This document shows positions 29,675-35,151 of a DNA stretch of 64,000 nt, piece by piece. Position 1 is the stretch's first letter, and each line of letters opens with the position of its first letter. Source of the stretch: Candidatus Micrarchaeota archaeon. GTDB lineage: Archaea > Micrarchaeota > Micrarchaeia > Anstonellales > Bilamarchaeaceae. The DNA lies in NCBI GenBank assembly GCA_043821365.1, contig JBDRCX010000006.1:519417-583416 (forward strand), read 5' to 3'. The position numbers and the translations under genes were made by a program. Under the pieces are notes generated by a model. The model made no database searches and was not told the DNA's origin. It saw only the letters and a list, made by a program, of their open reading frames with translations.

Positions 29675-29853
29675 GCGACTTTTTAGGAAAAAGTCGCCCA
29701 AAAACTAGTTAAAAAAACTCATCCTTGAACAAAGTTCAAGGTGCAAATTGTTGCTCTGCAACAATTACGTGGCAAAAAACTAATTTGCTATTTGGAAAAA
29801 AGGTAGCACCAAAAACTCATCATTAGTAAAATTGTGCCACAAAAAACTGATTT
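29675..29853. repeat. Array of short hairpins, each associated with a CAAAA(A)CT-N-(A/G)TT motif
   Basis: Hairpins at 29675-29697 (GCGACTTTTT/AAAAAGTCGC), 29723-29741 and 29746-29766. Motifs at 29698-29710, 29773-29790, 29809-29820 and 29838-29853. Confidence 0.7.
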
Positions 29854-29870
29854 ATTATTTGGAATACCCA

Positions 29871-34160: not shown

Positions 34161-34178
34161 TTTTTTTATTTAAAAAAG

Positions 34179-34251
34179 TAGCCCCGAGCGGATTCGAACC
34201 GCTGTCAATGGATCCAAAGTCCACTATCCTTGACCGCTAGACGACGGGGCT
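34179..34251 (-). tRNA. tRNA-Gln (anticodon UUG), 73 nt, intron-less, no encoded CCA
   Basis: Reverse complement AGCCCCG-TC-GTCT-AGCGGTCAA-GGAT-A-GTGGA-CTTTGGA-TCCAT-TGAC-AGCGG-TTCGAAT-CCGCT-CGGGGCT-A folds as a cloverleaf. Confidence 0.9.
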
Positions 34252-34317: not shown

Positions 34318-34731
34318 TATAGGCTCGAGAAATCCGCAGCAGTAACCGCAGAAGAACATGGCAAAGGAGTTTCTGATGCAGGATGGAAAATATTCACGAA
34401 TATCCTAAGCTACAAAGCGGCAGAAGCTGGTTGTGAAGTAATATTTGTGAATCCAAAAAATACGTCTAAAGTTTGCAACAGGTGTGGTTCATCTGTGCCA
34501 AAGAGGCTATGGGAAAGACAACATATTTGTCCTTCATGTGGTTTGAGCATGGATAGAGACCTCAATGCTGCGATAAATATACTCGAAAAAGCTACTGTTG
34601 GAATGGCAGGAAGTAACGCTTGTGTTGGAGAGCAACGCTCTTCGACAGCTAAAGGTTCAAAGCCTTTAGATGGAGATGTTTCAAAAGAAACGTCAATGAA
34701 GCAGGAAGCTCACATCCCTAGATGTGGGTAG
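34318..34731 (+). pseudogene. Remnant of an IS200/IS605-family TnpB (OrfB) gene; only the C-terminal approx 137 codons remain
   Basis: The open frame from 34318 encodes ...GVSDAGWKIFTNILSYKAAEAGCEVIFVNPKNTSKVCNRCGS...CPSCGLSMDRDLNAAINI...SMKQEAHIPRCG (RuvC-II/Zn-ribbon/RuvC-III end). The N-terminal two thirds are missing. Confidence 0.75.
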
Positions 34732-34740
34732 TTCACGAAG

Positions 34741-34751
34741 ATTATAAAAAG
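34741..34751 (+). promoter_or_regulatory. TATA-like box upstream of tRNA-Val
   Basis: ATTATAAAAAG lies about 26-36 nt upstream of the tRNA 5' end at 34777, the usual archaeal spacing. Confidence 0.5.
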
Positions 34752-34776
34752 CCTTTCACAATCATAAGAAACACAT

Positions 34777-35017
34777 GGGCTCGTAGTCGAATGGTTATGA
34801 CGTCCGCCTCACAGAAACTTTTTGGAAAAAAGTTTCACAAAAACCCGTTCAAAAAGTTTTGGGAGCGCGGAAGATTCGCGGTTCGATCGTTCTTTTTTAG
34901 TAAAACATTCGTGAACGTATTGCGTTCACGGTGCCCCATAAAAACGAATTCTCGTTTTTATAGGGAAGAACCAAAAAACTAGTTCCTAAAAAGCGCACGA
35001 AAATCCGCGCGGGCCCA
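34777..35017 (+). tRNA. tRNA-Val (anticodon CAC) with two introns: approx 52 nt at the canonical 37/38 site and approx 116 nt in the T-loop
   Basis: Exons GGGCTCG-TA-GTCG-AATGGTTA-TGAC-G-TCCGC-CTCACA / (N)GCGGA-AGATT-CGCGG-TTCGA / AT-CCGCG-CGGGCCC-A assemble into a 73-nt cloverleaf. The anticodon is at 34810-34812. Confidence 0.8.
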
Positions 35018-35151
35018 TTTTTTCATTTTAGTTTAAGTAATACTCAGGATAAAATGGAAGCTAAGTGAAATCTCAATTTCACAATTTTTGCTAATATAAG
35101 ATTCTTGTGGAGCAGGAGAATGTTTTAATTTCTTAACTTTGTTGTGCTATT

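Follow-up and report, generated by a model that had tools for sequence, protein, structure and literature searches.

A probably functional tRNA-Val(CAC) gene interrupted at 37/38 and in the T-loop in a Micrarchaeota archaeon

Known archaeal systems and the anatomy of the locus

In Thermoproteales, a tRNA gene can contain up to three introns, the position between nucleotides 59 and 60 (59/60) is among the recurrent insertion sites, and related intron sequences are found in different tRNA genes and at different positions. Both multi-intron tRNAs and the transposition of introns have reportedly been described in this group (Sugahara 2008, Fujishima 2010). The earlier note on the DNA considered here, made from the sequence alone, referred mainly to Thermoproteales and to a few other archaea, but the host belongs to a different phylum, Micrarchaeota (DPANN), and the exact precedent is found in the 59/60 T-loop introns of ARMAN-2. 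The splicing endonuclease EndA has the (alpha-beta)2 form in Thermoproteales and, as it appears, the epsilon2 form in the present host. Unlike in Thermoproteales, the sequence that introns have in common here is a hairpin module and a three-way-junction element, which can lie in either direction and are not confined to tRNA genes.

In ARMAN-2, 56% of tRNA genes are disrupted, and the introns include those located in the T-loop at 59/60 (Fujishima et al. 2011, PMC3239211). A relaxed intron at 59/60 is cleaved in vitro by the epsilon2 EndA of ARMAN-2 (PMC3239211); the enzyme possesses the triad Y236/H251/K282 and a specificity loop with K161 (PMC3488258). The locus described below is similar to this system in the phylum, the 59/60 site, the use of the T stem as an outer helix, the relaxed bulge-helix-bulge (BHB) motif, the type of enzyme encoded and the joint presence of canonical and non-canonical introns. 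It is distinct in the tRNA concerned, Val(CAC), and in the size of the T-loop intron, which is 116 nt long and includes a three-helix element as compared with 13 nt in ARMAN-2 tRNA-Cys; the interruption of tRNA genes also appears heavier, roughly 85% of loci by an approximate count versus the 56% reported. Twice-interrupted genes of this kind and their splicing enzyme are already known from Micrarchaeota, and the known splicing mechanism remains unchanged. The present gene is a new member of this kind; its T-loop junction was corrected, one of its introns is a recent gain that can be dated, and this intron contains a structured element without a match in Rfam beyond chance level. A 2026 preprint on Asgard tRNA introns (10.64898/2026.10.13.758758) considers it an open question how such introns arrive, and a lineage with traceable intron copying is useful material for this question.

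The locus was located at 34777-35017 (+) of the window, i.e. the whole stretch of 64,000 nucleotides that was analysed. With a probability of about 0.85, it represents a single-copy, functional tRNA-Val(CAC) gene spliced at 37/38 and 59/60. Excision of two segments yields a 73-nt product, which ARAGORN calls as tRNA-Val(cac) with all four stems. The following features were distinguished:

34741-34750 (+): TATA-box-like element ATTATAAAAA, read directly, 27-36 nt upstream of tRNA position 1; putative promoter
34777-34813 (+): exon 1, tRNA nt 1-37; acceptor 5' strand, D arm, anticodon-stem 5' strand and loop to A37 (anticodon CAC)
34814-34865 (+): intron 1, 52 nt, canonical 37/38 position; strict hBHBh' (3-4-3), register obtained by the scan and held in the constrained fold
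34866-34887 (+): exon 2, tRNA nt 38-59; C38, anticodon-stem 3' strand, variable loop, T-stem 5' strand, T-loop UUCGAU
34888-35003 (+): intron 2, 116 nt, non-canonical 59/60 position; H helix UUCG (nt 54-57, 34882-34885)/CGAA (34998-35001), from the scan and the fold
35004-35017 (+): exon 3, tRNA nt 60-73; U60, T-stem 3' strand, acceptor 3' strand, discriminator A73; the CCA end is not encoded
35018-35023 (+): T6 run directly 3' of the discriminator; likely transcription stop

Neither ARAGORN (default and -i) nor the Rfam tRNA model reported a gene at the unspliced 34777-35017, and the sole tRNA found by these programs in the window was tRNA-Gln(UUG) at 34178-34251 (-). A 'tRNA-Val(aac)' called by ARAGORN -i at 34488-34675 was rejected as false; it falls inside a TnpB remnant. 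The interrupted gene was recovered by a genome-wide splice-aware scan, anchored on G+C-rich 7-bp acceptor pairs located no more than 650 nt apart and accompanied by a D arm or a T arm. Every BHB-compatible register (a 4-bp H helix and an outer helix of at least 2 bp) was excised in combinations of up to three, and the products were checked with ARAGORN and a cloverleaf score. The Val(CAC) locus received the top score in the genome, 80, with a score of 37 for its own runner-up solution, and in the single solution accepted by ARAGORN a 52-nt intron follows nt 37 and a 116-nt intron follows nt 59. For most multi-intron loci the scan gives unreliable best solutions with many alternatives, and its output is not a full tRNA catalogue.

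Folding of the precursor agrees with this solution. The acceptor, D, anticodon and T stems are all present already in the unconstrained fold of the full 241 nt, the minimum free energy (MFE) of which is -85.2 kcal/mol versus -55.4 +/- 4.9 in shuffled sequences (z about -6), and the fold constrained to both BHB motifs lies 6 kcal/mol above the MFE. The G+C content is 63% in the exons, 33% and 37% in the introns and 36% in the genome. These results bear out the earlier reading of the locus as a tRNA-Val(CAC) gene with two introns, one of them in the T-loop, and with paired acceptor, anticodon and T stems. It is extremely improbable that the 116-nt segment was joined in by misassembly across a repeat. 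The segment does have repeat modules in common with other loci, but the locus lies deep within a contig of 798 kb, the sequence at both junctions is unique, the exon halves fit exactly and the nearest repeat copies in the same genome are only 77% identical.

Intron 1 was found by the BHB scan at the very coordinates proposed earlier and corresponds to a canonical intron: its excision restores the 7-nt anticodon loop, and the motif includes two 3-nt bulges and a 4-bp helix, with the cuts after bulge nt 2. The H helix is formed by C32-U33-C34-A35 and UGGG (34860-34863), with one G.U pair; the bulges are C36 A37|G and A G|C38, the h helix is AAACUUUUU/AAAAAGUUU, and the h' helix is the 5-bp anticodon stem. 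The 5' end of the intron carries a clade-wide hairpin module, GAAACTTTTTGGAAAAAAGTTTC + ACAAAAAC (34814-34844), which recurs across the genomes of the genus and the family.

In the T-loop, the intron length of 116 nt given in the earlier note was retained, but the junction was moved from 34887-35002 (58/59) to 34888-35003 (59/60), because this is the only BHB register found there and because nucleotide 59 is then U, in agreement with all orthologues. The four pairs between U54 U55 C56 G57 and CGAA are all Watson-Crick, the 3' bulge AA|U60 comprises 3 nt and is located directly on the T stem CGCGG/CCGCG, and the 5' bulge is A58 U59|C. The predicted spliced U59-U60 junction is ...GGUUCGAU|UCCGCG..., giving a predicted mature loop UUCGAUU, and another Val gene (C6:214222-214246) contains the sequence of the spliced junction, CGCGGTTCGATTCCGCGCGGGCCCA, without interruption. 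A functional gene cut at 58/59, with the mature loop UUCGAAU, would make use of a junction that the sequence permits at the same 116-nt length and of an A59 compatible with T-loops generally. However, this junction allows neither a 4-bp H helix nor a 3-nt bulge, and the scan accepted 59/60 only. Besides, U59 is present in 9/9 orthologous sequences compared and A59 in none, and the identical uninterrupted T arm of the other Val gene reads TTCGATT. There is very little likelihood that the 58/59 position is correct.

BHB motifs, which the earlier note had proposed to look for at both junctions, can be drawn at both, with a relaxed 5' side in the case of intron 2. Its 5' bulge is not a clean 3-nt bulge, and two arrangements can be drawn: a 3x1 internal loop that precedes an h helix with interruptions, or a three-way junction. 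In the first option, G-C and U.G pairs are followed by an internal loop and then by CUUUUUUAG/CUAAAAAG, and a single unpaired A faces the bulge. In the second option, the P1 helix of the structured element, GUUCUU/AAGAAC, begins directly after the bulge, and the relaxed h helix CUUUUUUAG/CUAAAAAG competes with it. A relaxed 5' side of this type is similar to that of the ARMAN-2 tRNA-Cys substrate.

The earlier note also drew attention to the T5-T6 runs of the introns, which would normally act as archaeal terminators. Among 484 ORFs with 300 or more codons, the ratio of sense T5+ runs to A5+ runs is 0.343 versus 0.346 expected from composition. Since T5 is not depleted in long ORFs, T5 runs are unlikely to terminate transcription efficiently and are probably not effective terminators in this organism. 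For T6, the ratio in the same ORFs is 0.18 versus 0.28 expected, a depletion of about 35%, which becomes stronger at T7 and T8. Intron 2 holds a single T6 run, which is a modest concern for termination, and T tracts are present in nearly all introns of the clade.

Host tRNA genes and splicing enzymes

The host genome of 1.2 Mb has a G+C content of 36% and is 87% complete. The Rfam model gave 18 tRNA matches above the threshold in the 1.2 Mb, and about 45 tRNA loci were recognised by eye and by the scan, about six of them uninterrupted. By an approximate estimate, most interrupted tRNA loci of this genome are overlooked or wrongly called by ARAGORN and Rfam taken together, and standard annotation would greatly understate its decoding capacity. 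No second Val(CAC) gene, either with or without introns, was found in the 87%-complete genome; an intron-less copy elsewhere had been named in the earlier note as an argument for a disrupted pseudogene. Two other Val genes are separate and interrupted, namely tRNA-Val(UAC) (C6:290943-291047) and a likely Val(GAC) (C6:214222-214491), the latter with the uninterrupted T arm CGCGGTTCGATTCCGCG mentioned above. GUG is a minor codon, with 11.9% of the Val codons, and might be decoded through wobble by tRNA-Val(UAC), so that the Val(CAC) gene may be dispensable.

The 59/60 register is not confined to tRNA-Val(CAC). Introns with the same register and a perfect H helix, UUCA/UGAA, are located in tRNA-Gly(UCC) (C2:13887-14010, minus strand) and in a multi-intron tRNA-Pro (C3, about 74,900-75,200, minus strand), and these two 50-nt introns are about 88% identical. 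A tRNA-Ser on C1 has the same register with three of the four pairs of the H helix. The start of the tRNA-Gly(UCC) intron resembles a degenerate copy of the 3' end of its own gene, and because of this mimicry ARAGORN predicts a false uninterrupted tRNA-Gly.

The earlier note had suggested looking for an EndA of broad specificity, and a predicted one is encoded in the genome (C6, about 408.6-409.7 kb, minus strand). The 393-aa ORF matches the ARMAN-2 epsilon2 enzyme (PDB 4FZ2) over residues 5-393/4-387 with an E-value of 3.5e-132, includes the endonuclease N-terminal and catalytic domains (Pfam), and keeps GTYK (with the equivalent of K161 of the specificity loop) as well as the motifs in which the Y/H/K triad lies, RIYFPG, HSKHV and AHSV(K/R)KT. 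Judging by these similarities, it can be assigned to epsilon2-type EndA with three units (alphaN, alpha and betaC). A tblastn search with this protein over genome contigs found 227 relatives; among the best 80 of the 227, almost all carry the label Candidatus Micrarchaeota, and the closest of those with a more specific name belong to Bilamarchaeum/Bilamarchaeaceae. In comparison with the 4FZ2 enzyme (Hirata et al. 2012, PMC3488258), the loop sequence is GTYKAAHR instead of GTYKVSEH, and the present genome also contains a second, EndA-like ORF of 163 aa at C6 about 480404-480895 (+) (L002:1291-1782). This ORF matches PF01974 with an E-value of 3.4e-12, and its best PDB match is EndA of M. jannaschii (E 2.4e-9). 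The RtcB ligase is encoded as well (C6:673872-676544, plus strand); its matches fall into two pieces about 1.4 kb apart within a 910-aa open frame, and the protein looks intein-containing.

It is likely that the gene product is formed in the following way. A precursor of roughly 250 nt would be transcribed from the TATA-like promoter (34741-34750) to the T6 run (35018-35023). The homodimeric epsilon2 endonuclease would cut it at 34813|34814 and 34865|34866, at the strict 3-4-3 BHB of intron 1, and at 34887|34888 and 35003|35004, releasing intron 2. In the latter motif, T-loop nucleotides 54-57 (UUCG) would pair with CGAA of the intron, with the 3' bulge placed on the T stem and the 5' bulge flanked by a relaxed or intron-internal helix. 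The three exons would then be joined by RtcB, and the CCA end would be added.

Orthologues and the gain of the T-loop intron

The Val(CAC) orthologues of related genomes (referred to by G numbers) differ in their introns:

G010, G087, G089 (same genus); G026, G036 (other family): Val(CAC) without introns
G024, G009, G082: Val(CAC) with a 37/38 intron only, about 52 nt, homologous to intron 1
G015 (closest relative): Val(CAC) with a 133-nt 37/38 intron and no T-loop intron

Three of the intron-less genes were scanned with the Rfam tRNA model (G010, G087 and G026) and scored 63.6-69.2 bits. Exon 1 is identical to that of G015 in 37/37 nt and has one mismatch each to G024, G010 and G009. The spliced sequence differs from that of G015 in one base, A43 instead of G43, which replaces a G.U pair with A-U, and from the intron-less G010 gene in three positions. 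The upstream block AAGATTATAAAAA is located at the same distance 5' of the G015 orthologue. In the homologues of intron 1, of which few were compared, the h helix is compensated, being AAGC/GCUU in G009 versus AAAC/GUUU in the host and in G024, and the H helix of the G009 intron is CUCA/UGAG. Intron 1 is common to several congeners and is older than intron 2.

An intron related to intron 2 is absent from all other Val(CAC) orthologues examined in the order. Unrelated T-loop introns were detected in Val(CAC) of G149 and of the metagenome contig Ga0066650_10108525, in the latter after TTCGAT, i.e. at the same site. This was the only informative Micrarchaeota contig from the metagenome pattern scan; two further matches fell in a bacterial gene rich in G+C and are attributable to chance. 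It seems that the T-loop site has been hit repeatedly and that intron 2 was gained recently, since no other orthologue in the order has a related intron. The case is a clean one, with an insert-free site in relatives and kin of the insert in other tRNA introns. Intron 2 was probably gained as a copy from a family of structured intron elements circulating among the tRNA genes of the genus.

Being unique to this genome, intron 2 could be a very recent insertion, not yet sifted by selection. An alternative explanation is a fresh pseudogene, in which a repeat element would have entered the T-loop of a working one-intron Val(CAC) gene and would be removed inefficiently, with GUG read by tRNA-Val(UAC). 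Such an explanation would agree with the absence of the insert from the other orthologues examined in the order, with the occurrence of its repeat family in both orientations, with the non-canonical 5' bulge, with the T6 run in the insert and with the minor status of GUG in the presence of tRNA-Val(UAC). It is nevertheless unlikely. The last six bases of the insert provide for an H helix with all four pairs and for a 3-nt bulge, in the very register that restores the orthologous UUCGAUU; the estimate for random sequence is about 2%. The 59/60 register recurs in the same genome, perfectly in two other tRNA genes and with three pairs of four in a third, the T-loop introns in Val(CAC) of G149 and the metagenome contig are independent, and a predicted EndA of broad specificity is encoded. 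Moreover, interruption is the norm in this genome (roughly 85% of tRNA loci, approximate). A spliced gene is favoured because the exact BHB register restores the orthologous loop, the same register occurs in other genes and the enzyme is present. It is therefore probable that the locus is a genuine and functional twice-interrupted tRNA gene.

Differences in intron content were observed in other genes as well. The neighbouring tRNA-Gln(UUG) (34178-34251, minus strand) is uninterrupted, and its syntenic copy in G024 appears to hold one or more introns in the region of the D arm; intron presence thus differs gene by gene between congeners. The orthologous introns of tRNA-Ser(GCT) in the host (C6:368882-369094, plus strand) and in G015 (contig C43) differ by two clean indels, the core of the structured element described below (about 70 nt), found only in G015, and a block of roughly 60 nt found only in the host and flanked by direct CCAAAAAC repeats. 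In this case, intron content appears to turn over via insertion or deletion at module sequences.

The structured element of intron 2 and its relatives

Most of intron 2 is occupied by a structured element, designated here X:

34889-34984 (+): element X, three helices, member of a family of ~95 nt
34889-34894 and 34966-34971 (+): helix P1, GTTCTT/AAGAAC
34910-34930 (+): hairpin A
34934-34965 (+): hairpin B
34972-34984 (+): tail CAAAAAACTAGTT

The closest relative of X is located in the 37/38 intron of tRNA-Ser(GCT) of G015 (91% identity over 87 nt). Copies with 77-78% identity were found in the first T-loop intron of tRNA-Pro(GGG) of G012, both ends of which are in common with intron 2, and in the tRNA-Glu(CTC) intron of the host. 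A shorter match (34 nt, 88%) lies in a host tRNA at C6:321370-321590. Both of these host copies have the opposite orientation relative to the tRNA. In five X copies, RNAalifold identified eight compensated pairs in hairpins A and B. Helix P1 was not picked because MAFFT misaligned the 5' ends of the five copies, but, read directly from the five sequences, it is compensated as well (GTTC../..GAAC, GCGC../..GCGC and AAAC../..GTTT). A covariance model of X found copies in 34 of the 99 family genomes, up to ten per genome and five in the host, and a flank heuristic placed X copies inside tRNA genes in both orientations. In Rfam, the element gave no more than chance-level matches, whether at the gathering threshold or at E<=10.

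Judging by its sequence, X appears to be an expansion of a simpler directional module, which consists of a T4-7/A4-7 hairpin and a (C)CAAAA(A)C tail. The genome contains about 50 copies of the simple module, which usually begins 1-3 nt past the 5' splice site and also stands at the start of intron 1. Copies are likewise found in 23S rRNA and, free-standing, in intergenic DNA. An Rfam search at E<=0.5 around 20 module sites gave one tRNA match and one 23S match only, and the sites were then inspected by eye.

A tentative and rather doubtful interpretation is that intron 2 was newly copied from an element that is modular and folds by itself. This element would be composed of a T5/A5 hairpin and a CCAAAAAC(TRGTT) tail, expanded here to a three-way junction, and might spread between Micrarchaeota tRNA genes, between positions (37/38, D arm and T-loop) and between orientations. 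If X supplies its own helix presenting the splice site, it could colonise constant loops such as the T-loop. If this interpretation is true, the locus would provide a dated natural example of the arrival of an archaeal BHB intron.

Several other candidates were considered and rejected. A transposable element (MITE or IS200/IS605-derived) as the source of intron 2 was discarded since there is no target-site duplication at the Val insertion site (TTCGAT|...|TCCGCG) and the sole TnpB is a C-terminal remnant; the ends of the intron, CTTTTTTAG/CTAAAAAG, are inverted-repeat-like but double as helix h. The hairpin modules were not accepted as IS200/IS605 ends, as the genome has a single TnpB C-terminal fragment and no intact copy. 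For a group I/II intron or a tRNA-intron sRNA (e.g. C/D box), Rfam gave only chance-level matches in 34700-35100, both at the gathering threshold and at E<=10.

The TnpB remnant itself (IS200/IS605 family; window 34320-34734, plus strand) retains a zinc ribbon and the motif DRDLNAAINI and matches PF07282 with an E-value of 2.4e-15. It has an in-frame stop upstream, is located between tRNA-Gln and the tRNA-Val promoter, and is the only TnpB-like sequence in the genome.

An intergenic array of modules is located in the window at about 29676-29860 (+), corresponding to C6:549092-549280, and comprises GCGACTTTTTAGGAAAAAGTCGC + CCAAAAACTAGTT followed by several ...CAAAAAACTRRTT tails. These copies are free-standing, since no G+C-rich tRNA exons were found nearby. 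The same hairpin module, in the form of AAACTTTTTGGAAAAAGTTT + CATCAAAAAC, is present in the 23S rRNA gene region (G000:C4:16867-16886), which suggests an rRNA intron of the same family.
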